64,000 nucleotides of DNA from a bacterium (lineage in GTDB: Bacteria; CSSED10-310), in contig JBASEY010000042.1 in assembly GCA_049652745.1 (NCBI GenBank), forward strand, positions 6,153 to 70,152, in the 5' to 3' direction. The position numbers were made by a program, and so were the translations under genes. Below the pieces are notes generated by a model that was not told the origin of the DNA, did not search any database, and saw nothing but the letters and a program-made list of their open reading frames with translations. The number at the start of each line of letters is the position of its first letter. Position 1 is the first letter of the stretch. Shown piece by piece: positions 5,338 to 27,581 of this stretch.

Positions 5338-6239
5338 GCCGAGAATTGACGGACATTTTTCAGGTGGCTGGACACGATTTTCGGGACTCGATCCGAAGTC
5401 GTCGTCTTGTTGTCTGGGTATTGCTTTATCTGAGTGTTGCATGTGCCGGCACGTTCATTTTTTCCCGTGTTCTTCGAGAAATCGAGACACAGATATCAAA
5501 AGCCATAGCGGTGGATGCGTCGAAAACGACCGGCCAGGTTACGGTGACACTGCAAAAAAGCGAAGCTATACAAAAAACTGTCAGGGAGTTGATCAGTGAT
5601 GAAAGACTGGTGAATCAAATTCTCACGCTTCACCCGCTGGTTATTTTCTTTGCATGGTTTACGTTCACATTTATGCCTTTACTGGTCATCATCATCTGCT
5701 CGGATGCGATTGCGCGGGACATCAATACCCGCCACGTGCGATTCTTTTTATTTCGCACATCGCGATCGGCTTATGCAGTCGGCAAAGGTGTGAGTTCGGC
5801 GTTTCTTCTCCTGATAGCCTTGAGTTGTTCAGCGATAGCGACTTATGTAACCGGCGCTTTGGATGGGCAGGTGATTCTGGATCTCGGATCGGCGTTTCAT
5901 ATGCTGTTGTTCTTACTCAAGTCATGGTTTTTGATGCTGTCATATTTGGGTATTGCCCTGATGGCTTCTCAATTGCGTCGCTCGCCACTACAGGCGCAAT
6001 CTCTGGCGTTAATGATATTCTTCATTCTTGCGATTTTGCACCCTATCGCTTCAGTTAAAACCGGTCCGGGTTTCGCACGTTTATGGAGTGTGGCCACTAT
6101 TCTTTCGCCTTCATCGACCATTTATGATCTTTGGCATCCTGCATTGGCGAATAATTTGAAGTCTATTACCAGGTGTCTGGGACTCGGATTTATATATTTT
6201 TTTCTCGGTTTTTTATATTTTTCCAAGAGAGATGTCTGA
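5322..6239 (+). CDS. ABC-2 family transporter permease
   Basis: About 6 predicted TM helices. Its stop overlaps the start of the ATPase gene (TGATG). Confidence 0.6.
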   Translation: MVFRMSRELTDIFQVAGHDFRDSIRSRRLVVWVLLYLSVACAGTFIFSRVLREIETQISKAIAVDASKTTGQVTVTLQKSEAIQKTVRELISDERLVNQILTLHPLVIFFAWFTFTFMPLLVIIICSDAIARDINTRHVRFFLFRTSRSAYAVGKGVSSAFLLLIALSCSAIATYVTGALDGQVILDLGSAFHMLLFLLKSWFLMLSYLGIALMASQLRRSPLQAQSLALMIFFILAILHPIASVKTGPGFARLWSVATILSPSSTIYDLWHPALANNLKSITRCLGLGFIYFFLGFLYFSKRDV

Positions 6240-11062: not shown

Positions 11063-11806
11063 ATGGCCACACCGGTTATGAAGAAAAGCAAACCATGCCT
11101 AATCAGAACACTTGCCGGTTGGGGGTTCGGGCTGCCGATAACGTTTTTGACGGCTCTGACTGTGTTGGTGTGGTCTGCTGTCACTCGTAGCGGTGATGTG
11201 GTGCATAAAGGCGCTCGCTTTTGGGGCAGGGCAATATTGTGGTTATGTGATATCAAGGTCGTTATCAACGGTTTGGAACATCTGTCTGAATCCGCATCAT
11301 CGATGCTGATAGTCGCAAACCATCAAAGCATGTTCGATATTTTTGCGTTTGAGGGGTATTTTCCTGTCAAATTTGCCTGGATAGCGAAAAAGTCAATCTT
11401 CAGGATTCCGTTGGTGGGAGCGGCGATGAGGCGGGGAGGGTATATTTCCATCGACAGAGCGGATTCGGAAAGCGCCAGATTGTCTCTTCAAAAAGCGGCT
11501 GAACATCTACGGGATTATTCGATCGTGATTTTTCCGGAGGGTACCCGATCACGTTCCGGGAGCGTCGGTAAGTTCAAAAAAGGCGCTTTGCATCTGGCGG
11601 AAGCATCACGGGTGCCTATTTTACCGGTTACTGTAACCGGCTCCTGGGAGCGATTGAAACCTGAACATTGGGTCATTACCCCGGGAGTTTTGACGTTACA
11701 CATCGATCCACCTGTTTTGACGGTCGGCAAGACGCACGAAGAGATCGAAGAAGACTTGTCTGCTATCCGGGACGCCATGATACGGCGCGTGGATGCGTCA
11801 CATTGA
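11063..11806 (+). CDS. plsC: 1-acyl-sn-glycerol-3-phosphate acyltransferase
   Basis: NHQSxxD acyltransferase motif (VANHQSMFD) and FPEGTRS motif. Confidence 0.85.
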   Translation: MATPVMKKSKPCLIRTLAGWGFGLPITFLTALTVLVWSAVTRSGDVVHKGARFWGRAILWLCDIKVVINGLEHLSESASSMLIVANHQSMFDIFAFEGYFPVKFAWIAKKSIFRIPLVGAAMRRGGYISIDRADSESARLSLQKAAEHLRDYSIVIFPEGTRSRSGSVGKFKKGALHLAEASRVPILPVTVTGSWERLKPEHWVITPGVLTLHIDPPVLTVGKTHEEIEEDLSAIRDAMIRRVDASH

Positions 11807-12988
11807 GTCTCTATCGAGACCAAACTTTTTCATATATCGATAAAATGTGGCTTTATGAATTCCAAGGGCCTCTGAAGCCGCCGTGATATTTCCCTGATGC
11901 GCGACATAAGCTTTGCGTAAAAGTTCTGCTGTCGGTCGAAGGGAAGGCGGTTTATGCCGGGATGACGGACGCTCCGAAACAACCTGATATTCGCCGTCGA
12001 TGATGCCTCCTCCATGCACAGATTCACTATAGGGGGCTTTCTCGGGTGCAAGCCCGGCTTGATGAGGAATCAGGGCTTTCGGTAAAGGCTGTGACCAGGT
12101 TCCCGGCCAGCTTGGCGTATAACCTTTATAGGCTGAATGGGTGTCTTCAGATAATCTGCCATATTCAACATTTTGCAAGCCCCACGCACCGGCAGACAAA
12201 TAATCCCGCTCGGCGACCCACTCATTGAACGCGTCTTTCTCTATACGGTTGCCCTCTGTTTCAACATATACTCTCTCCAAAACATTGCGCAATTCTCGAA
12301 CATTCCCCGGCCAGTAGTAATCCAGCAGTAACTGCAAGGATTCTGAGGAGAGCTGCTGAATATTTTTTTTGTATCTCCGGTTCAGCATATCCAGGAAAAA
12401 ATCGACCAGAAGCGGAATATCGTTTTTTCTATCGCGCAATGCAGGGACATGGATTCGTAATACGGCCAGTCGGTGGTAAAGGTCACTTCTAAATCGTCCG
12501 CCGGCGACGAGTCTTTCGAGGTGGACATTGGTCGCGGCGACAATGCGCACATCGACAGGAATCAGTGTCTCCCCACCGATACGTTCAAATTTTCGCTCTT
12601 CAAGAACCCGAAGTATTTTGACCTGTATGCTGAGAGGCATGTCCCCGATTTCATCCAGAAAAAGGGTGCCATGATGCGCTCGTTCAAAACGACCGCGATG
12701 CGTTTTAACAGCGCCGGTAAACGCTCCCCTTTCATGGCCGAACAATTCTGATTCAAGTAGTTCTTCATGCAGAGCTGTGCAATTGATAGCCACAAAGGCG
12801 TTGTTGCGCCTGTTGCTGAACATATGCAAAGCCCTTGCAACCATTTCCTTGCCCGATCCGGTTTCACCGGTAATGACAACTGGAGCGTCGGTTGGAGCAT
12901 ACCGTTCAATTCGACGGAACATATCTTTCATCGAGCGTGAAGCGCCGATCATCCCGTAAAAAATATAAGATTGATAAGCCGACATCAT
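11798..12988 (-). CDS. sigma-54-dependent transcriptional activator lacking an N-terminal regulatory domain (PspF/HrpR-like)
   Basis: Walker A GETGSGKE, intact GAFTGA motif (ESELFGHERGAFTGA), arginine-finger region, and a C-terminal Fis-type HTH. Confidence 0.85.
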   Translation of the reverse strand: MMSAYQSYIFYGMIGASRSMKDMFRRIERYAPTDAPVVITGETGSGKEMVARALHMFSNRRNNAFVAINCTALHEELLESELFGHERGAFTGAVKTHRGRFERAHHGTLFLDEIGDMPLSIQVKILRVLEERKFERIGGETLIPVDVRIVAATNVHLERLVAGGRFRSDLYHRLAVLRIHVPALRDRKNDIPLLVDFFLDMLNRRYKKNIQQLSSESLQLLLDYYWPGNVRELRNVLERVYVETEGNRIEKDAFNEWVAERDYLSAGAWGLQNVEYGRLSEDTHSAYKGYTPSWPGTWSQPLPKALIPHQAGLAPEKAPYSESVHGGGIIDGEYQVVSERPSSRHKPPSLRPTAELLRKAYVAHQGNITAASEALGIHKATFYRYMKKFGLDRDSM

Positions 12989-13168
12989 CAGTTACTACTT
13001 TATGCGATTTACGGTGGTTTTTCAATTATCGAACGAAATCCGCCTGTGATCATACATGTGACAGGTGAGCTGAGATCGTGCGAGGTGTGGAATTGGCTGT
13101 CTTGACGCATCGAGGTTTTTCGGATACTGAGTGAGATCGGTGAAACGCGGGGTTTTAGGTAACGTATT

Positions 13169-14353
13169 ATGAAGACGAATAAATCGATTTATGCCGTAAT
13201 TGGTTGCGGTATGCAAGGTGTTGCAGAGGCGTATGATTTGGTTCGCTTTGGTCATGCCGAAAAAGTTGTGATGGTGGATTTGCGCCGGGAAGCCGCAGAG
13301 CAGGCGGCGGCTAGTGTCAACATGCTGACAGAGAGTGACAGGGCCGTTTCCATAGCGATCGATGCATCCCGAGGGGATGATATTGTTCGGATGCTTAGAG
13401 ATCACAATGTTACTGTTTGTTGTGGCGCTGCGCATTATGCACTCAATTATGAGCTTTCCAAAGCGGCTTTGGAAGCCGGTGCGCATTTTTGTGATATGGG
13501 AGGCAACACAGAAGTTGTCATGAAACAACACTTGCTGCATGATCCGGCGATGCAGAAAAACATTGGGATCGTTCCCGATTGCGGGATTGCGCCGGGAACT
13601 GCAAATATCCTGGCGGCACGTGCCATCAAACACATCGAATGCGATTCGATACAGATGTATTGCGGTGGTTTGCCGGTATCCAGAGATTTGCCGTTGGGGT
13701 ACAAATTGGTTTTTTCGATATCGGGTTTGACCAACGAATACACAGGTAACTGTATCGAGATACGAGATGGCCGGATTGTTTCCGTTCCAGCTTTTACTGA
13801 AAAAGAAGCTCTGGTGTTGCCGGAACCGGTGGGAGCCTGTGAAGCTTTTCTGACCAGTGGAGGTACCTCGACCGGGCCGATCAGTTTCCATGGCAAGCTG
13901 TCGTCATATGGATATAAAACCGTCCGATATCCCGGTCATTATGCAACAGTTCGCTCGATGATCGACATGGGGCTACTGGAATTGGATCCTGTTCAAGTTG
14001 CCGGTCAAGATGTTGTCCCCCGCGATCTGTTTCATGTTTTAGCGTCGGCTTATTGGGATTATCCGGATGAGCCGGATCTTCTTGTTTTGCGGGTTGTGGC
14101 TAAAGGGGCAATCGATGGTCGACCGGTCACAATGATTCAGGATCTGATGGATATACAAGATGGGAAAACCGGTTTTTCCGCTATGGCGCGAACGACGGCT
14201 TTTTCCGCTGCCATAATCGCGGAAGCTTTGGCATCGGGTGTTTTAGGTTCCGGTGTTCATTATCTTGAGCGGTCTGTCGACCCGGACTGGTTTGTCGAGG
14301 AAATGGCAAAGCGTTCGCTTCATGTTGTGACATTGATAGAATCCGCCGGATAA
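13169..14353 (+). CDS. saccharopine dehydrogenase family NAD(P)-dependent oxidoreductase
   Basis: N-terminal Rossmann motif AVIGCGMQG and Sacchrp_dh-like C-terminal region. Confidence 0.7.
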   Translation: MKTNKSIYAVIGCGMQGVAEAYDLVRFGHAEKVVMVDLRREAAEQAAASVNMLTESDRAVSIAIDASRGDDIVRMLRDHNVTVCCGAAHYALNYELSKAALEAGAHFCDMGGNTEVVMKQHLLHDPAMQKNIGIVPDCGIAPGTANILAARAIKHIECDSIQMYCGGLPVSRDLPLGYKLVFSISGLTNEYTGNCIEIRDGRIVSVPAFTEKEALVLPEPVGACEAFLTSGGTSTGPISFHGKLSSYGYKTVRYPGHYATVRSMIDMGLLELDPVQVAGQDVVPRDLFHVLASAYWDYPDEPDLLVLRVVAKGAIDGRPVTMIQDLMDIQDGKTGFSAMARTTAFSAAIIAEALASGVLGSGVHYLERSVDPDWFVEEMAKRSLHVVTLIESAG

Positions 14354-14408: not shown

Positions 14409-17400
14409 ATGTCGGATTTTTTTTCTCTTATATCAAAACGTAATTTTTGCTTGATGACAGCCTTTCTTCTTGTTGTCGTCTGTGCCTATTCCGACGATCA
14501 TGCTCCAGTATCCATTTTAGATGATGCTTTTGAACGTGCCGGTGCTTTGCGTTCCGATTTGGTTGTTCCGGAACCTTGGGAATCAGGTTTGATCGTGGCG
14601 GGTCGGCAGCCGGCTTTGAGTGATGCTATGGTCGATCCGCTTTATATTGTGCCGCTGGCTCATGTTTTTGGCGCCAGGTTTCGAGGGTTGAAAGGAACGA
14701 TTTCACCGGACAGTCTATTGGATACAGCCTATGAAATGCTCCATATCAGCACAACGGCTCACAAATCTTTCGTGCCGGAACCGAAGAGCCTTGTGGATGC
14801 TTTGGAGTGGCTCCAGGCAAGTCATCACAGAGGTGTTATTGAGGCGCATTATAGATCACATTTGGAAAAGCGGATTGCCCAATGGCCCACTGAATTGGAA
14901 GAGGCGGTCAGCATACTTGTTCAGGCAATGACAACCGCGTCTATGCTGCATAAAGAAGCTTTGGCCGCCCTGGATACGGAAGAAATCGAATTGCTGAAGG
15001 AGTCGATTGTCTCGATCGTTTCCGATCCAATTTCTACAGACGGCCAAATATTTTTTTCTGATAATGATCTGGAATGGCCCAGAAATCTCCAGTTGATGGC
15101 AAAAGTCAATTTCAACAAATTGTTCTATGCCGCCGATATTCTGGCGAAGGCCGTTGTCATAACTCGAGCGGGTCTTCAGACTGTCGCCGCGAAAATTCCT
15201 GCAAATCACGAAGAAGTACTTCTCAATTTTTATTCGCCGATAGGTAGAATAGTTGTCGCCGGTACCGGTATCAACACGCATAACAGCGATGCCGCATTGC
15301 TGATAGATCTTGGAGGAAATGATATTTATTTGAACAATGCCGGAGGTTGCATTGAATCCGGCGTCGGTATATCTCTTTTAATAGATATCTCGGGCAACGA
15401 TATTTATGAAAACCTGAATCCGGGTTCTCTCGGCGGCGCTATTCTCGGTGTAGGAATGGTGTTTGATTGCGAAGGCAGGGATGTTTATCGCAGTGGTTCG
15501 TTATCTCAGGGGGCGGCGATAGGAGGAGTGGGGTTTTTATATGATGAGCGTGGGGATGACATCTATCATGCGAAGTCGTTTTGCCAGGGAGCGGCGGTTT
15601 TTGGGGTTGGGATTTCAATAGATCTTGAAGGCGACGATACGATCGTTTGTAAAAGTATGGGTCAGGGTTTTGGCTCGACACTCGGCCTTGGTTTAATGCT
15701 CAATATTGCCGGAAATGACAGTTACGCATCCGGAGTTGATTTGGCTGCAACCGAATCGAATCCCGGCTTCGTATTCGCTCAAGGAGCCGCTGCGGGTTTT
15801 TCGCCGTCGGATAAGTCCAAGAATGTCGGTTATTATGGAGGAATAGGATTTTTGATCGATGGCAAAGGTGATGATCAGTATCTTGCAGGCCAATTCTGCC
15901 AGGGTGCCGCCAAGTTCGGTTCTATGGGGCTGCTTCTGGATTGTGGTGGAGATGACTATTACCAAGCCGGAGATTTTTCGCAAGGAGCCGCCGAGGATTG
16001 GAGTTCGGCGGTCATCATCGACCTGAAAGGCTCCGACAGATATTTAGCGGGAGATACATCCCAGGCTGCGGCGGTGAACCATTCGACAGGTATTTGCCTG
16101 GATTACGAAGGCGATGATGAGTACACCCTTATTGGAGCGCATGGCCAAGGGCATGCCCGACAACCGTTTTCATTGGGATTATTCCTTGATTACAAGGGGT
16201 TTGATCGGTATTCAGGAGGTCCTTTCAGTCGAGGTTCCGTCGTCAACACGTTTCAAGATACCGGCTATATCATAGGTGTTTTTATTGACCACAGAGGAAA
16301 AGATATTTACGAGGGCGTTATTTACGAAAACGATTCTGATAAGGAGATAAACAATACATTTTGGAGCCGCCGATTCGGTGAAATCGGTATTGATACTCCC
16401 CTGGCGCCAGGATTGTATTTCTTGGATCAACAGGCTCATTCGCGTCACCAGCATTATGATATGAGCCCTGTAACGGATTTGGAAAGCGGGGTGGAATTGT
16501 CCCGTTTGGGAGCAGGTGATCCGTTTAAGTGTAATCATGCGTTAAGCTTTGTGAACGATAAAGGAAAGGATGCCATACCAATCATTATCAAAGCGGTAAG
16601 CCGTGGTCACGACTCTTTTCGCCGAACAATCGAAGAAGGCCTTGGTATTATATTATTACAGCATCCTGTCGATACGGAAAGCATCGATCAGCTTATTCCC
16701 CTGCTTGGTAATCTGGACCCCAAAACTCGACAATGGGCCTTGATTCAGTTAGCCAAATACTCCTCTTCCGACCTTGTCGAAGTGGTGGCGAATCACCTTC
16801 ACGACGACGATGCCGGGGTTCGTGAAGCTGCAGCCCGGATAGCCGGCGGAATAAAGAGCTCCAAGTTGGAGCGGGAACTGGCTCAAATGGCTGTCAACGA
16901 CACGAAGCCGGGATGCAGATATGTCGCCATGAAAGCTCTGGCGGTCAATACAAGTCCGGAGTATGAAGTTGTTTTCAGGAAAGGGCTGGGCGATTCTCAT
17001 TTGGCAGTTCATCATGCCGCATTGGACCGGGTTATTCATCAAAATGATCTTGTAGCTATAGGAGCGCTACAACTTTTATCATTAAGTCAAAATCCGTTTG
17101 TGCGTGTTTCTTCGGCAATCGGATTGATCCAATTGGGCGAAAAAAGCGGGTTTCCCATTTTGATCGATTCGCTGGAAGGAGTACCGCGAGAGATCTCGCC
17201 GTTCGACACTGCGCAAGATGTGTCTGAATTCATGGCAGAATACAGCGGGGTGGATCATGGTTGGAACAAGGGTACCTGGGAACAATGGTGGGCATCGAAT
17301 GAAGCGGATTTTTCATTGATGCGCTGCCAGAAGGCTCGTCAAGATTACCTTGAGTTTTACAGTTTGATAGCTACGATGCCCCCGATTCAAGTTGTGAATA

Positions 17401-17720
17401 GGCTCGATCAATTGCGAGCAAAATATCCGTTTTATAAGGGTATCGATAAGCGCCTTTCCGTATTTGTTCAAAAAGCATCGCAAATTGCAATGGCTGATAA
17501 GGCCTGGGATTCGGCGGGGAAATTGGTGGATTATTTGGTTGATATGAATCCGGATAATCCTGATACCTGGGTTACTCTATCTCAATATTTGCATTGGACC
17601 AAACGAACCGAAGAAGCATTGACTGCTTTGGAAAAAGCTCTGAATAAAGAACCTGAAAATGCACTTTACGGGCGCTTGAAAGAAATCTATGAGGATACAC
17701 TTCGGCGATCCGCTAATTAA
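14409..17720 (+). CDS. large secreted repeat protein: about 12 tandem 27-aa GDDxY/QGAA beta-solenoid-like repeats, then HEAT and C-terminal TPR repeats
   Basis: Signal peptide. Repeats GNDIY.., GRDVY..SQGAA..GVGFLYDER, GDDIY..CQGAA..GISIDLE and so on, between about nt 15260 and 16330. PBS-lyase/HEAT-like repeats near aa 680-900. TPR at the C-terminus. Confidence 0.7.
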   Translation: MSDFFSLISKRNFCLMTAFLLVVVCAYSDDHAPVSILDDAFERAGALRSDLVVPEPWESGLIVAGRQPALSDAMVDPLYIVPLAHVFGARFRGLKGTISPDSLLDTAYEMLHISTTAHKSFVPEPKSLVDALEWLQASHHRGVIEAHYRSHLEKRIAQWPTELEEAVSILVQAMTTASMLHKEALAALDTEEIELLKESIVSIVSDPISTDGQIFFSDNDLEWPRNLQLMAKVNFNKLFYAADILAKAVVITRAGLQTVAAKIPANHEEVLLNFYSPIGRIVVAGTGINTHNSDAALLIDLGGNDIYLNNAGGCIESGVGISLLIDISGNDIYENLNPGSLGGAILGVGMVFDCEGRDVYRSGSLSQGAAIGGVGFLYDERGDDIYHAKSFCQGAAVFGVGISIDLEGDDTIVCKSMGQGFGSTLGLGLMLNIAGNDSYASGVDLAATESNPGFVFAQGAAAGFSPSDKSKNVGYYGGIGFLIDGKGDDQYLAGQFCQGAAKFGSMGLLLDCGGDDYYQAGDFSQGAAEDWSSAVIIDLKGSDRYLAGDTSQAAAVNHSTGICLDYEGDDEYTLIGAHGQGHARQPFSLGLFLDYKGFDRYSGGPFSRGSVVNTFQDTGYIIGVFIDHRGKDIYEGVIYENDSDKEINNTFWSRRFGEIGIDTPLAPGLYFLDQQAHSRHQHYDMSPVTDLESGVELSRLGAGDPFKCNHALSFVNDKGKDAIPIIIKAVSRGHDSFRRTIEEGLGIILLQHPVDTESIDQLIPLLGNLDPKTRQWALIQLAKYSSSDLVEVVANHLHDDDAGVREAAARIAGGIKSSKLERELAQMAVNDTKPGCRYVAMKALAVNTSPEYEVVFRKGLGDSHLAVHHAALDRVIHQNDLVAIGALQLLSLSQNPFVRVSSAIGLIQLGEKSGFPILIDSLEGVPREISPFDTAQDVSEFMAEYSGVDHGWNKGTWEQWWASNEADFSLMRCQKARQDYLEFYSLIATMPPIQVVNRLDQLRAKYPFYKGIDKRLSVFVQKASQIAMADKAWDSAGKLVDYLVDMNPDNPDTWVTLSQYLHWTKRTEEALTALEKALNKEPENALYGRLKEIYEDTLRRSAN

Positions 17721-17735
17721 AAAGGAGGAGTTATC

Positions 17736-18920
17736 ATGCTGTTTTCTCGATCTGATGTAAATACACGTTTGATGATCTGTTTTTGTTCAATTGTAATCGT
17801 ATTTTTTTCATCATCCTCTCTGGCGTTTTTGTCACCCGAGACACCATTGCCGTCGCCACCGAAAAATTGTCATGCTGCTCTGGTTATGGAGGTTTCTTCG
17901 GGGGAAATAGTGTTTGAATACAATATAAACGATCGGGTCTATCCAGCGTCCATGGCCAAAATGATGTTGGTTTTGATAGCCATGGAAAAAGTGAAATCCG
18001 GAGAAATCTCTTTGGACGACGTAATAACCGTATCTGCCGCAGCTTCAAAGATCGGGGGTTCGCAAGTATACTTGAAACAAAATGAAACATTTACCTTACA
18101 GGATCTGTTGGAATCGGTTTTGATACAATCCGCCAATGATTCCAGCCATGCGATAGCGGAATATATAGCTGGTTCTCGAGATGGTTTTGTTGAGCTGATG
18201 AATCAAAGAGCCGCGCAATTAGGGATGGAGAACACGGTATATCAATCTCCGCACGGCCTTCCGCCTGATGCACAAAGAGGACCCGATATCACAACAGCTC
18301 GTGATTTGGCTGTTTTGGCTCGTGAACTATTGATCAATCATCCTGAAATACTTCAATGGACATCATTGGATACCAAACCTTTTCGTGACGGAACATTTAT
18401 TATGACCAATACGAATCGTTTGGTACGTAAATTTGACGGATGCGATGGAATAAAAACCGGTTATTATCGGGATGCCGGGTTCAGTATAACAGCTACGGCA
18501 CAGCAAAAAGGCGTGCGGGTCATCGCGGTTGTCGCTGGTTGTGGGAAAGGGAAAGAAAGGTTTGATGAAGCTGAAAGGCTTATGAAATGGGGTCTGTCGC
18601 TTTTTATAAACACTGAATTGATTTCGGCGGGGTTTCCTGTAGAGAATCTGATTCCGGTCGTAAACGGCGCCAAACTGGAAACTCGACCTGTGACTCAAAA
18701 CAGTGTGAGCGCCGTTATACCCAAGAACAGAGTGGGCGATATCATGATGAAAACCACTCTCGAACGTGAGCTGGTTGCGCCGTTGGAACCTGGAATAAAA
18801 TGTGGAAAAATAAGCTTTTCCCTGGATGACCATGAATTGGGAACAAGTGACCTGGTAACCTCGGAATCCATTGAAGCGCTGGGGTGGTGGGGACGATTGA
18901 AACGAAAAGTCGGGTTGTGA
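17736..18920 (+). CDS. D-alanyl-D-alanine carboxypeptidase (S11 peptidase, PBP5/6-like)
   Basis: SxxK motif (SMAK), SxN motif (SAND), KTG motif (IKTGYY). Signal peptide present. Confidence 0.85.
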   Translation: MLFSRSDVNTRLMICFCSIVIVFFSSSSLAFLSPETPLPSPPKNCHAALVMEVSSGEIVFEYNINDRVYPASMAKMMLVLIAMEKVKSGEISLDDVITVSAAASKIGGSQVYLKQNETFTLQDLLESVLIQSANDSSHAIAEYIAGSRDGFVELMNQRAAQLGMENTVYQSPHGLPPDAQRGPDITTARDLAVLARELLINHPEILQWTSLDTKPFRDGTFIMTNTNRLVRKFDGCDGIKTGYYRDAGFSITATAQQKGVRVIAVVAGCGKGKERFDEAERLMKWGLSLFINTELISAGFPVENLIPVVNGAKLETRPVTQNSVSAVIPKNRVGDIMMKTTLERELVAPLEPGIKCGKISFSLDDHELGTSDLVTSESIEALGWWGRLKRKVGL

Positions 18921-20454: not shown

Positions 20455-20599
20455 ATTTCGATACGGAAGCTGTTTCGAGCTGTTCGTGTGGGCTTGAATT
20501 GTTACGCTGAGAATTCTTGAAAAATATCGAATAAAGTTGATCTTTTACAAAAGGATGTTCTATCATGACCACGCTGGATTTTGTACGCAGAGGTTTGCC

Positions 20600-21187
20600 A
20601 TGATTAGATTTACAATGACTGTTTTCTTATGCTCCATAGTGGTTTTAACCGGTTGCCAGACGGCGCCGCGTGTTCACAGAATCGAAACCGATGAACCGAT
20701 TGATCTGAGTGGTCGTTGGAATGATACCGATTCACGTCTTGTTGCTGAAGAAATGATTTCCGACGCGCTGAACCGTCCATGGCTTATGGCGTTTGTGGAA
20801 AAGAACGGCAAAAAACCTGCCATTATCGTCGGCACCGTTCTCAATCGATCCCATGAATTGATCAGCACGGACACCTTTATCAAAGATATGGAGCGTGCAT
20901 TCATCAATGCTGGAAGCGTTCGCATCGTTCAGTCCGCTGAAGCGCGTGAACAGCTCCGTGATGAACGAGCTGACCAGCAACAGTTTGCCGATCCGGATAC
21001 GGCGAAGCGGTGGCGGCGGGAATTAGGAGCGGATTTTATGCTCCAGGGTGTTATCAATTCAATTGTCGATACACAGGACCGGCAGCAGCTTGTCTATTAT
21101 CAAGTTGACCTGGAACTCACCGATATCGAAACAAACGAAAAGGTTTGGCTCGGCGCCAAAAAAATCAGAAAGTTTGTAAACCGTTAA
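20600..21187 (+). CDS. LpoB-like lipoprotein (COG3417-like)
   Basis: Lipobox LTGC. The C-terminal domain pattern matches that of E. coli LpoB (VG.V.N.S..., GADFML.G.I...). Confidence 0.5.
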   Translation: MIRFTMTVFLCSIVVLTGCQTAPRVHRIETDEPIDLSGRWNDTDSRLVAEEMISDALNRPWLMAFVEKNGKKPAIIVGTVLNRSHELISTDTFIKDMERAFINAGSVRIVQSAEAREQLRDERADQQQFADPDTAKRWRRELGADFMLQGVINSIVDTQDRQQLVYYQVDLELTDIETNEKVWLGAKKIRKFVNR

Positions 21188-21226: not shown

Positions 21227-22624
21227 ATGAATTCCTTCACGCGGATTTCAGTTATCTTGGTTTTCCTTATAAATACACTGACAGGATGCGCAACGTATTA
21301 TCAACAAAATATTGCATTTCAACAGGCTATAGCGGCTGGTCAATATCATCAAGCTGTCGACTATCTGGAAAACAATAGTGCGCTCAGAAAAAAACCAAAC
21401 AAGCTATTGTATTATCTGGAAAAAGGAACAGCCCTTCATATGGCCGGCGAATATGGGGCCAGCAATGAAATGTTCGAAAAAGCGTATGCTTTTATAGATG
21501 ATTTTATCAAAAATCACGGTCTTGAGGCATTGTCTTTTATAACCAATCCAACTGTTGTTCCTTATCCCGGGGAAGATTTTGAGCGTGTTCAAATCCATTA
21601 TTTCAAGGCTTTGAATCATGCGATGACCGGGAATTTATCCGATGCGCTGGTCGAATGCAGGCGAATCAATATCAAACTCAACGAAATCAATGACAGATAT
21701 GAATCAAACAAACGAAACCACTATTCCGGGGATGCATTTGCTTGGAATTTAATGGGTATTTTTTATGACGCTTTAAAAGAGTACAACAATGCCTTTATTT
21801 GTTACAGAAATGCCTTGGCATTATATGAAACAGATTATTTAACGTATTATAACGTGCCGGTTCCACAACAATTGATACATGATCTGCTGAAGGCGGCGCA
21901 GGATGCCGGAATGTACCAGGAGTATGATTTTTACCATGAAAAATATGCGTTGTCGGATATATTGCCTGAAAAAAACGGTGAGGCCGGCGACGTCGTTGTT
22001 TTTTGGAACGATGGGTTGGCGCCGATCAAAACAGAAGACAGTCTGAATTTTTTTATTGAGCGGGGAGCTGGTGGAGTCATGATGTTTGTCAACCAGGAAC
22101 AGGATATTTGGTTGCCGATGCCGCCAACCGGTACAGGAAGTGGAAATGTGACGGATATGAGTTTTATCCGAATGGCTCTACCCCGCTACCTTGAAAGATC
22201 TCCTTTTTTTATCGAATGCAGAGTGTCAATCGGCTCTAAAGAAATTGTGCTGGAAAAAGCTCAGGATATCAATGCGATAGCATTTTTAAATCTTCAGGAT
22301 CGAATGGGTCGGGAATTGGGAAAGGCACTGCTTCGCATGGTGTTAAAACAGGGAATTGAAAAAGCGGCGCGTGACCAAGATGAAGGCCTTGGTTTGATCG
22401 TTTCGGTTATCAATGCGGTCACAGAAAAAGCCGATACCCGAAGCTGGCAGACGTTGCCTCACCATATCGACTATGCTCGAATTTCCGTAGAAGAAGGACA
22501 GTATCAGCTTGTTTTCAAACGATCCAGTTATACTGGCGCACAATACGAAACCATACAGGATGTCGTCGTGAAGAAGGGTAAAACCACGTTCGTCACTCTG
22601 TTCGATCCACAATCGATCCCGTGA
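21227..22624 (+). CDS. TPR-like lipoprotein partnered with the LpoB-like gene
   Basis: Lipobox LTGC. N-terminal helical-repeat/TPR-like region. Confidence 0.5.
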   Translation: MNSFTRISVILVFLINTLTGCATYYQQNIAFQQAIAAGQYHQAVDYLENNSALRKKPNKLLYYLEKGTALHMAGEYGASNEMFEKAYAFIDDFIKNHGLEALSFITNPTVVPYPGEDFERVQIHYFKALNHAMTGNLSDALVECRRINIKLNEINDRYESNKRNHYSGDAFAWNLMGIFYDALKEYNNAFICYRNALALYETDYLTYYNVPVPQQLIHDLLKAAQDAGMYQEYDFYHEKYALSDILPEKNGEAGDVVVFWNDGLAPIKTEDSLNFFIERGAGGVMMFVNQEQDIWLPMPPTGTGSGNVTDMSFIRMALPRYLERSPFFIECRVSIGSKEIVLEKAQDINAIAFLNLQDRMGRELGKALLRMVLKQGIEKAARDQDEGLGLIVSVINAVTEKADTRSWQTLPHHIDYARISVEEGQYQLVFKRSSYTGAQYETIQDVVVKKGKTTFVTLFDPQSIP

Positions 22625-25739: not shown

Positions 25740-27581
25740 ATGAAGGCATCAATCAACCTGCGTATCAAAGCTCCCAACAGTAAAATGCGTAATGTTCTTC
25801 TGGAAAAGAACGAAGTCATTATTGGCAGGGACGCTTCTTGTGATGTAAGAATTGTTGACCCGGAGGTTTCGCGTCGACATGCCGCCTTGCGAATAGAGTC
25901 TCCAGATAAGATAATCATCAAAGACCTGGGAAGCTCGAACGGCACCTATATTAAAAACTCGCCGATCACAGGAGAAAAACGAATTTCTCCCGAAACCACT
26001 ATTCGTATGGGGAATAGCTATATTACGATTGAAATCAAAGGGGAAATAAAAAGCCAGGGTTTTGATATGGTCGTTACTCCCTCAGCTTATCTGCCGATGT
26101 CGGAAATTCTTGAAAAAGACCTGGATTTTTTCAGTTCCAAGACAAAAGATTTGTTAAGTTTATTCGATGATCTTCTCAGTTTCAGTTTTAGCAAGATACG
26201 ATCAAGTCTGATACTGAGCAAGATAATGGGTATTCTTGAGGCAGACAATGGAATAGTCGTTCTAAAACGTTCCGAGAGTGATACCGAGAAAGCGATTCTT
26301 GCCCAAAAAGGCGAAATCGTTCATTATCCATCGAGTATATTTGAAGCGGTTGGGGAACGGGCGGATTGTATTGTTTTACCCGAAGTCGATTCAAAAGAAT
26401 ACGTAACCGATTTAGGGAAGAAAGGAATTGGATCGCTCATATGTGCGGCAGGAGTCAATTCCGGTTTAATTCGGGTTGTTATCTATCTTGATAGGTCTGT
26501 CGGCAAAAAGATATTCAACAAAAATGATTTAGGTATTCTATGTCACCTGGCTCAAATATACGCAGCAACGGTGACCTATAACGTCGATCAGAAGATACAG
26601 GAACGAAAACTGAGCGGATATGAAGCCGAGCGATTACATTTTTTCGGTGAACTTGCCACTGAAACCGATATTTCGACGTCCAGCTCAAATAAAAAAGTCC
26701 AGCAACTGATGTTCATTGCAATGCGTGTAGGCCAATCGGATCGCCATGTTTTTATACATGGTGAGCATGGCAGCGGGCGTTTGACTTTGGCAAAGCGAAT
26801 ACATGTTTTCAGTAACAGAAAAGAGGGTCCTTTTATTTTTATGGATGCTTTGTCGACACCTCGAGATCGGATAAGAGAGGTGTTGTTTGGGGGCGAAGAA
26901 AAGGACACAAGTCCAGGACTGCTCGAGAGATCGCAGGAAGGAACACTTTACATACAGGAGATTACGGCTGTTCCTCTGGATATTCAAAAGGAATTGGCTG
27001 GCGTGCTGAGCAACGAATATACGTCTGAAAGCGATAATCAGCGGCGCCTATATACCTCGGTTCGTTTAATTGTATCATCTTCGGTTCACCCGGATAAAAC
27101 TGTCGCTGACAGCACGTTTAATTCCAATTTGCTTGATTTGACCTATCCAACGGTGTTGTTTGTGCCGTCGTTGAAAGAACGGAATGAAGATATTCTGTCG
27201 TTGGCGAAACATTTTCTGCGTGAATATTTGCCGTCAAACTGCGCCATGCCCGATTTCAATCCTCAGGCGGTTGAGCTGCTGGTTCGGTATCCATGGCCGG
27301 GCAATATAACTGAACTTCGGGACACGATGAGCTATACGGCGGCGGTGTGCCGTGAAAGGGAATTACAGATAGGGGATTTACCATATAAGTTACGAGAACA
27401 TCCGTCGGTAACTGCATCTAAAAACTTGGGTTTACGTCAACAATTGGATACGTTGGAAACCAATTTGATACTTGGGGCTCTGGAGCGAAATCGTAAAATT
27501 GTGACAAAAGCGGCGAAATCGCTGGGATTGTCGGAATCGACACTTCGATATCGTATGCAGCGATTGAAAATCGAGGTTTGA
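25740..27581 (+). CDS. FHA / GAF-like / degenerate sigma-54-EBP AAA+ / Fis-HTH transcriptional regulator
   Basis: FHA motif (IGRD...RRHA...DLGSSNGT). Central GAF-like region. The AAA+ region is clearly EBP-like, but Walker A is GEHGSGR (Lys to Arg), GAFTGA is replaced by GGEEKDTSPG, and Walker B is YIQEI (Asp to Gln). C-terminal HTH present. Confidence 0.7.
   Translation: MKASINLRIKAPNSKMRNVLLEKNEVIIGRDASCDVRIVDPEVSRRHAALRIESPDKIIIKDLGSSNGTYIKNSPITGEKRISPETTIRMGNSYITIEIKGEIKSQGFDMVVTPSAYLPMSEILEKDLDFFSSKTKDLLSLFDDLLSFSFSKIRSSLILSKIMGILEADNGIVVLKRSESDTEKAILAQKGEIVHYPSSIFEAVGERADCIVLPEVDSKEYVTDLGKKGIGSLICAAGVNSGLIRVVIYLDRSVGKKIFNKNDLGILCHLAQIYAATVTYNVDQKIQERKLSGYEAERLHFFGELATETDISTSSSNKKVQQLMFIAMRVGQSDRHVFIHGEHGSGRLTLAKRIHVFSNRKEGPFIFMDALSTPRDRIREVLFGGEEKDTSPGLLERSQEGTLYIQEITAVPLDIQKELAGVLSNEYTSESDNQRRLYTSVRLIVSSSVHPDKTVADSTFNSNLLDLTYPTVLFVPSLKERNEDILSLAKHFLREYLPSNCAMPDFNPQAVELLVRYPWPGNITELRDTMSYTAAVCRERELQIGDLPYKLREHPSVTASKNLGLRQQLDTLETNLILGALERNRKIVTKAAKSLGLSESTLRYRMQRLKIEV

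Follow-up and report, generated by a model that had tools for sequence, protein, structure and literature searches.

What kind of protein is encoded by the gene at positions 14409–17720 (plus strand) of the DNA analysed here, and what could the regular glycine- and aspartate-rich repeat in its centre be used for? The window, i.e., the whole stretch of 64,000 nucleotides (nt), covers positions 6,153 to 70,152 of the forward strand of contig JBASEY010000042.1 (assembly GCA_049652745.1) and originates from a bacterium of CSSED10-310, a rare phylum known from metagenome-assembled genomes only (PMC8248873). Judged by its sequence and its predicted fold, the repeat is a new, previously uncatalogued family within the known class of beta-solenoids. 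The gene itself is the sole long open reading frame at its position, starts with ATG and comprises 1103 codons. Public assemblies contain a homologue of the same length with 99% identity and another one with 76%; the next relative shares 65%, and full-length relatives reach down to about 25%. As full-length relatives are known over this entire range, the gene can be regarded as real and intact, and the frame of 1103 amino acids (aa), which had been proposed in a first-pass annotation of this DNA and has no internal stops, was retained as it stood.

The repeat and its predicted beta-solenoid

The gene and its parts are listed below. AF2 stands for structure models predicted with AlphaFold2, and pLDDT, the predicted local distance difference test, for their confidence per residue.

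14409–17720, plus strand: whole gene, 1103 aa, with signal segment, helical domain, beta-solenoid, HEAT and TPR parts (open reading frame list, translation, full-length homologues, AF2)
14409–14492, plus strand: putative export signal, aa 1–28, consisting of MSDFFSLISKRN and then the hydrophobic FCLMTAFLLVVVCAYS (read from the translation)
14496–15203, plus strand: predicted all-helical N-terminal domain, aa 30–265 (AF2 helices at aa 36–260, pLDDT mostly >90; conservation in alignments)
15204–16412, plus strand: predicted beta-solenoid with 13–14 coils, aa 266–668 (anchors, unit model against shuffled copies, AF2, composition)
15732–15836, plus strand: insertion loop in coil 7, aa 442–476, ending in an invariant Y-G-G-I-G (52-aa unit)
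16497–17303, plus strand: HEAT-like alpha-solenoid of helical hairpins, aa ~697–965 (Pfam, PDB matches, AF2 helices)
17316–17714, plus strand: C-terminal TPR-like helical domain, aa ~970–1102 (AF2 helices at aa 970–1102; Pfam)

The units of the repeat can be counted by their G-x-D anchors, which are located at aa 303, 329, 356, 382, 408, 435, 487, 514, 541, 568, 597 and 630. Neighbouring anchors are 26–33 aa apart, except for one unit of 52 aa which bears an insertion. If the degenerate first and last coils are counted in, the solenoid includes 13–14 coils at aa ~270–665 (nt ~15216–16403), a slightly wider span than the roughly 12 repeats at 15260–16330 which had been described before. A hidden Markov model of the unit, trained on distant homologues only, matched the protein at 14 positions with regular spacing, compared with zero to two matches in 50 shuffled copies. 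Among 54 members of the family, for which 625 anchor intervals could be measured, spacings of 27 (228 intervals), 26 (143) and 28 residues (48) were the most common. The per-position profile of these 54 members reads G-[ND]-D-x-Y-x-[AGS]-x2-[FY]-[SAG]-Q-G-[AS]-[GA]-x2-3-G-x-G-x-L-x-D-x2 and essentially recovers the consensus that the first-pass annotation had given. In this profile G1-[ND]2 is conserved and D24 reaches a conservation of 0.91; the conservation of D3 is fixed by the definition of the anchor. Alignments made independently of the anchors nevertheless show the Asp of the repeat to be likewise invariant or at least 90% conserved, and the G, D, Y and Q columns of the repeat to be invariant. 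No tandem repeat is detectable in the gene at the level of DNA, and therefore the repeats of the protein must be ancient; a recent DNA duplication as their origin is ruled out by the same observation.

An AF2 model of aa 1–720, based on an alignment of 60 sequences, reached a pLDDT of 90.8 and a predicted template modelling score (pTM) of 0.91. It consists of a signal-like helix, the all-helical domain (aa ~30–265) and a beta-solenoid (aa ~270 to ~665), and this confident model bears out the beta-solenoid which the regular spacing of Gly and Asp had suggested earlier. Each coil of the solenoid (pLDDT 95–98) has a long strand and a short one with a turn between them: the six-residue strand x-G-x-L-x-D leads into a turn of five to six residues (x-x-G-[ND]-D), behind which comes x-Y-x-x as a strand of four residues, and the third segment, likewise short, lies around S-Q-G-A-G. 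According to the DSSP pattern of the model the cross-section is three-sided. The rise of a beta-solenoid is 4.8 Å per coil, a textbook value, and with 13–14 coils a rigid, regular rod of about 6 nm length is predicted. The insertion of 25–30 residues in coil 7 has a pLDDT below 50 at aa 445–451 in the full-length model; G477 and G478 are invariant in the family alignments. The full-length model has a pLDDT of 88.9 and a pTM of 0.86; a pTM of this height points to a defined packing of the domains. The 403 residues of the solenoid include 38 Asp and 69 Gly (17% Gly), resulting in a net charge of −32 and an isoelectric point (pI) of 4.2. In the family the net charge ranges from −49 to −18 with a median of −28.5, and Asp accounts for 10% and Gly for 18% of the residues.

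Searches against collections of known families and folds gave no indication of a described relative of this solenoid. Neither Pfam nor NCBIfam includes a model that matches aa 1–750 of the protein, and Pfam searches with the 54 family solenoids yielded no consistent or significant match (best E 0.002); the most frequent match among them, DUF6329, was found in eight members at E values of 0.007 or above. A named repeat family is thereby ruled out. Sequence searches against the PDB remained without match for a solenoid-only profile as well as for a profile of the single unit, and with the full protein or a full-family profile they returned matches to the HEAT and TPR parts and none to the core. 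At the level of structure, a Foldseek search with the model of aa 1–720 gave no match with E<0.5, neither to the PDB nor to BFVD (predicted viral structures). The top PDB match was 3p4g (E 0.58, probability 0.41, template modelling score normalised to the target 0.42, root-mean-square deviation 10 Å), which is not significant. A positive control, in which the full-length model was searched against this PDB library, did yield matches: the HEAT part was recognised at E 8e-8, and all matches of this model were of the HEAT type. A search of the literature for the motif or the architecture returned nothing relevant. The earlier statement that the repeat fits no named family thus holds for Pfam, NCBIfam, PDB profiles and Foldseek alike.

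A coil of 26–27 residues with three strand segments lies within the size range of the pectate-lyase fold, and hence it has to be considered whether the protein is a carbohydrate-active right-handed beta-helix enzyme or binder (of the pectate-lyase, NosD or CASH type) acting on peptidoglycan or exopolysaccharide, with the HEAT and TPR parts being accessory. A gene for a NosD/Beta_helix protein and one for a GT2 glycosyltransferase are found nearby in the cluster, and one member of the family is fused to a Peptidase_M14 carboxypeptidase, which would fit with this idea. However, neither the protein nor any of the 54 solenoids matched the Beta_helix, NosD or pectate-lyase models of Pfam at E<=1, and tailspike- or pectate-lyase-like Foldseek matches were not significant (E>1, probability <=0.06). 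Moreover, G, D, Y, Q and L recur in every coil, as is expected for structural residues and unlike a single catalytic site. Such an enzyme or binder therefore appears rather unlikely.

Export, modules and spread of the family

The N-terminus of the protein carries a signal-like hydrophobic segment, and the same applies to most of its relatives: a hydrophobic N-terminal stretch is present in 94 of the 112 homologues that start with Met, and 21 of the 112 contain a lipobox-like motif. Because of these two features the family is predicted to be exported and partly lipid-anchored, in agreement with the earlier description of the protein as secreted. Within the helical domain that follows, R66 and P77 are the sole near-invariant residues of the family alignments; the domain has no match in Pfam and none in the Foldseek search of the PDB. 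The protein shares with its family the set of features by which the latter is defined, namely an export signal, a helical domain which spans about 230 aa and bears an R..P motif, and 12–15 coils of G-[ND]-D-x-Y...Q-G...G-x-G-x-L-x-D.

Downstream of the solenoid, HEAT repeats and then a C-terminal TPR domain had been proposed, and both were recovered by Pfam above the gathering thresholds. HEAT_2 (PF13646) matches aa 759–845 with E 8e-13 (48.9 bits, cut-off 27.7) and TPR_19 (PF14559) matches aa 1027–1091 with E 1.3e-7 (32.2 bits, cut-off 25). By sequence search the HEAT part also resembles alphaRep and HEAT proteins of the PDB, and the Foldseek matches of the full-length model to this part were alphaRep and PP2A-A structures at E 1e-7 to 1e-4.

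Whereas the helical domain and the solenoid form a constant core and always occur together, the modules attached to them vary. Among 54 representatives, HEAT repeats were found in 34 and PDZ domains in seven, and Peptidase_M14 and LVIVD in one each; HEAT repeats occur with or without a TPR domain. The solenoid starts at about residue 250–300, or at about 400 in members with an N-terminal PDZ domain. The two rare fusions, a zinc-carboxypeptidase domain (Peptidase_M14, E 1e-47) in one member and beta-propeller repeats (LVIVD) in another, might hint at partners.

A search with the solenoid only (aa 266–668) against 1.84 billion representatives of clusters at 50% identity returned 3450 clusters at E<=1e-3, of which 1323 reach E<=1e-30. 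In addition, genomes were scanned with patterns derived from the close clade, by which relatives were confirmed in 172 stretches from at least 172 species genomes, and 80 loci were kept for the analysis of context. These loci belong to CSSED10-310, Planctomycetota, WOR-3, Ignavibacteria, Zixibacteria, Cloacimonadota, Nitrospira, Armatimonadota, Latescibacterota and others. Overall, the family is spread over many, mostly uncultured, diderm phyla, including also the FCB group, Nitrospirota, Desulfobacterota and many candidate phyla; the cultured planctomycete Aporhodopirellula aestuarii (Planctomycetota) is among the carriers. Some genomes contain two copies. The closest named relatives, with identities of 53% and 33%, belong to CSSED10-310.

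The acidic, Gly/Asp-rich composition of the solenoid is also compatible with a surface-exposed, Ca2+-dependent adhesin or an S-layer-like protein of RTX-like character, for which the peptidoglycan-related genes next to the locus would be coincidental. The best, though weak, Foldseek matches were indeed the RIV beta-helix of MpAFP and the S-layer protein of Caulobacter, and the neighbourhoods of the gene vary across the family. Yet, the family carries its signal (Sec-type or lipobox) at the N-terminus and not at the C-terminus as in type I secretion, there is no match to HemolysinCabind, and Pfam shows neither the C-terminal domain of the type IX secretion system nor an autotransporter barrel. 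In addition, the number of coils is fixed at 12–15 and the length held at about 1100 aa, which is unlike expandable adhesins, and partner domains such as HEAT, TPR and PDZ are characteristic of adaptors in the periplasm. Only a small chance is hence given to a function at the cell surface.

Neighbouring genes and a putative role in the cell envelope

The genes which follow on the same strand of the window are:

17736–18920, plus strand: PBP5-type DD-carboxypeptidase with signal peptide (Peptidase_S11 E 2e-60, PBP5_C)
19225/19273–20454, plus strand: NosD/Beta_helix-like gene with signal peptide, located between the PBP5 and LpoB-family genes (Beta_helix E 1e-7)
20555–21187, plus strand: LpoB-family lipoprotein (Pfam LpoB E 1e-41; lipobox)
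21227–22624, plus strand: TPR lipoprotein (Pfam TPR; lipobox)

The carboxypeptidase gene (S11 gene in the following) begins 15 nt past the stop codon of the family gene, and the gap contains an AGGAGG ribosome-binding site. All four downstream products carry a signal peptide or a lipobox, the latter being VLTGC in the LpoB-family protein and TLTGC in the TPR lipoprotein. The annotation of the first two as a DD-carboxypeptidase and a secreted beta-helix protein agrees with Pfam and with their signal peptides. Beyond the gene for the TPR lipoprotein, convergent PmbA/TldD genes are found, and the GT2 glycosyltransferase gene is also located nearby in the window.

In four other CSSED10-310-like genomes (L001, L005, L006 and L007; identity of the family protein 76% in L005, and 53%, 51% and 33% among the other three) the order of the family gene and the S11 gene is kept. 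In two of them the two genes overlap by 4 nt (L001, 13300–13303; L007, 11237–11240), which suggests translational coupling, and both genes are probably co-transcribed in CSSED10-310. The genes for the LpoB-family protein, the TPR lipoprotein and PmbA/TldD are also kept in L001, L005 and L006. The beta-helix gene is limited to the window and to the 76%-identical relative L005, being absent from L001, L006 and L007, and seems to have been inserted recently into an array that is conserved apart from it. The earlier suggestion of a cell-wall-associated scaffold, which had been drawn from the DD-carboxypeptidase and beta-helix neighbours, consequently stands only in part: the linkage to the S11 gene is conserved and probably operonic in CSSED10-310, but it does not extend to the entire family, and the beta-helix neighbour lies outside the conserved set.

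Outside of CSSED10-310 (about 75 loci) the family gene lies among unrelated genes of housekeeping type. A Pfam survey of close same-strand neighbours, 38 downstream and 39 upstream, revealed a heterogeneous set which includes TatC, NFACT, IspD, DnaB and xanthine-dehydrogenase-type proteins. Together with a clustering of the neighbours of 81 loci, this survey rules out a conserved operon partner of the family as a whole. At individual loci, a Peptidase_S41 gene is located beside the family member P0021, an M6 peptidase gene lies upstream in three loci and a Lon gene downstream in one; other lineages have unrelated genes at these places.

These peptidases could be taken to indicate that the protein serves proteases of the periplasm as an adaptor or by delivering their substrates, following a logic like that of NlpI and Prc and without being specific for the synthesis of the cell wall. 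PDZ-bearing variants are common, and peptidase neighbours occur in different lineages (S11, S41, M6, Lon), in addition to the one fusion with M14. However, each of these associations is found in a few loci and involves unrelated families, some are expected by chance among 80 loci, and Lon is a cytoplasmic enzyme. A general protease adaptor is accordingly considered improbable.

The reading that is preferred here, and which is estimated to have about an even chance of being correct, is that of an exported envelope protein whose helical core and cation-bound, rigid solenoid form a scaffold, whose HEAT and TPR parts serve for the docking of partners, and whose role is a local one in the peptidoglycan machinery. 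The core would be a rigid scaffold or spacer and not an enzyme. A scaffold is favoured over catalysis because the conserved positions recur in every coil and look structural, and because no conserved catalytic motif is apparent, the helical domain offering R66 and P77 only. Partner binding and specificity would be left to interchangeable modules, i.e., HEAT and TPR in this protein and an N-terminal PDZ domain elsewhere. The turn D-x-x-G-[ND]-D and the x-Y-x-x strand behind it would place two ladders of Asp along one edge of the solenoid. Since the solenoid is acidic (net charge and pI given above) and has two near-invariant Asp at this turn, one divalent cation site per coil, most likely for Ca2+, is suggested as a candidate by analogy to known solenoids; the Ca-binding roll considered in the first-pass annotation is thus plausible. 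Due to their density of negative charge, the Asp ladders should need counter-ions; their charge may be compensated by the binding of divalent cations, and folding and rigidity of the ~6 nm rod would thereby become cation-dependent. In CSSED10-310 the protein would most likely serve to position or regulate the machinery which trims peptidoglycan in the periplasm. As the gene of the DD-carboxypeptidase is probably coupled to the family gene and an LpoB-family lipoprotein is encoded next to it, peptidoglycan maturation is the most likely process there.

Several observations weigh against this reading. The link to peptidoglycan rests on synteny in one phylum: S11 genes account for four of the 38 close downstream neighbours, all of them in this phylum, and in the clustering of the 81 loci no neighbour family was found in more than seven. 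With regard to the cations, AF2 models carry no ions, and the sites were deduced from the sequence pattern; the stacked Asp residues could form Asx-turn hydrogen bonds instead. Finally, neither Pfam nor the unit profile searched against the PDB revealed a sequence relation between the repeat and those of RTX proteins or MpIBP.

If the combination of a cation ladder and an adaptor is true, it would represent a new envelope-organising module in lineages in which the regulation of the cell wall is essentially unknown. In that case protein design might profit as well, from a solenoid scaffold with a regular repeat of long period. Independent of this, naming the family would give a domain boundary to proteins which are currently labelled merely as 'HEAT repeat' or 'PDZ domain-containing'. 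The interest is tempered by the fact that, in uncultured phyla, it is not unusual to encounter exported repeat families which are uncharacterised.

A few further features of the locus were observed. An open reading frame of the saccharopine-dehydrogenase family (13169–14353, plus strand; Pfam E 5e-34) lies upstream of the family gene and is kept at this place in L005, L006 and L007. It is overlapped on the opposite strand by a frame of 289 aa without Pfam match (13022–13891, minus strand), which is probably spurious. Genes for enhancer-binding proteins with a Sigma54_activat domain are found near the locus in the window (11798–12988, minus strand; 25740–27581, plus strand) as well as in L001 (3318–5846, 8472–9683 and 22038 to the end), one such sigma-54 gene being divergent and located two genes upstream of the family gene. 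In four of the 39 upstream loci (L045, L046, L052 and one more, from the Zixibacteria/Ignavibacteria group) TatC is encoded directly upstream on the same strand, which is probably lineage-specific synteny. A scan for promoters and terminators gave the same counts as in shuffled sequence and was thus uninformative, and neither tRNA genes nor Rfam families reaching the gathering score occur anywhere in the window.

Comparison with known solenoids and periplasmic adaptors

The closest analogy for the predicted solenoid is found in RIV of the Marinomonas ice-binding adhesin MpIBP, a beta-roll with a 19-residue repeat whose XGTGND-XUXU element binds Ca2+ along one edge (PMC6891781). Like the predicted solenoid of the protein studied here, RIV of MpIBP/MpAFP (3p4g; repeat XGTGND-XUXU-GGXUXG-XUX) is a parallel beta-solenoid built from a regular Gly/Asp-rich repeat. 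Once per coil and along one edge, RIV has a six-residue turn that ends in G-N-D, behind which comes a strand of four residues whose apolar or aromatic residue faces inward, and the repeat of the family is predicted to have this layout, too. The coil of the family is, however, longer (26–27 versus 19 residues), and its D-x-x-G-[ND]-D turn resembles XGTGND only partly. The conserved S-Q-G-A-G segment and the long x-G-x-L-x-D strand have no counterpart in RIV, and export is expected to proceed via an N-terminal signal, in contrast to type I secretion in the case of MpIBP.

The RTX beta-roll (HemolysinCabind, XUXGGXGXD) is likewise an acidic, Gly/Asp-rich parallel beta-structure and, by inspection, has a G-x-D-x-U core of turn and strand in common with the repeat. 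It differs in its period (nine residues and 18 per coil, versus 26–27 residues), in having two cation sites per coil compared to one candidate site, and in forming a two-sheet sandwich where the DSSP pattern points to a three-sided solenoid. The nonapeptide model (PF00353; GGxGxDxUx) did not match the protein at E<=1, and in one of the 54 members a weak match to Peptidase_M10_C was found (E 0.019). The hallmark of RTX secretion is absent as well, with the C-terminus being formed by the TPR domain and the N-terminus by the signal-like segment.

Beta-helices of the pectate-lyase fold (Beta_helix PF13229, NosD PF05048, tailspikes) have a similar number of residues per coil and also three strand segments. 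Apart from the lack of Pfam and of significant Foldseek matches described above, they are set apart from the family by its far more regular repeat with invariant G, D and Y positions.

With respect to function, the systems which come closest are regulators of the Lpo/NlpI type, known from Proteobacteria; in E. coli, NlpI and the N-domain of LpoA act in the periplasm as adaptors for peptidoglycan enzymes and are built from TPR or other helical repeats. A bolder version of the scaffold reading, regarded as a doubtful one, would see in the protein a cation-stiffened periplasmic 'ruler' and thus a new class of envelope adaptors, which, by means of its HEAT/TPR or PDZ modules, would dock peptidoglycan-processing enzymes, here the PBP5-type enzyme and the LpoB-family lipoprotein, at a fixed distance from the membrane and would be the counterpart of Lpo and NlpI in many uncultured diderm phyla. 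No homology to NlpI or LpoA was detected beyond the generic TPR, and neither of the two has a counterpart of the beta-solenoid core. The analogy, which is drawn from the synteny in one phylum, lies in three shared features: all of these proteins are, or are predicted to be, exported, possess helical-repeat binding modules and are linked to penicillin-binding proteins or peptidoglycan hydrolases.

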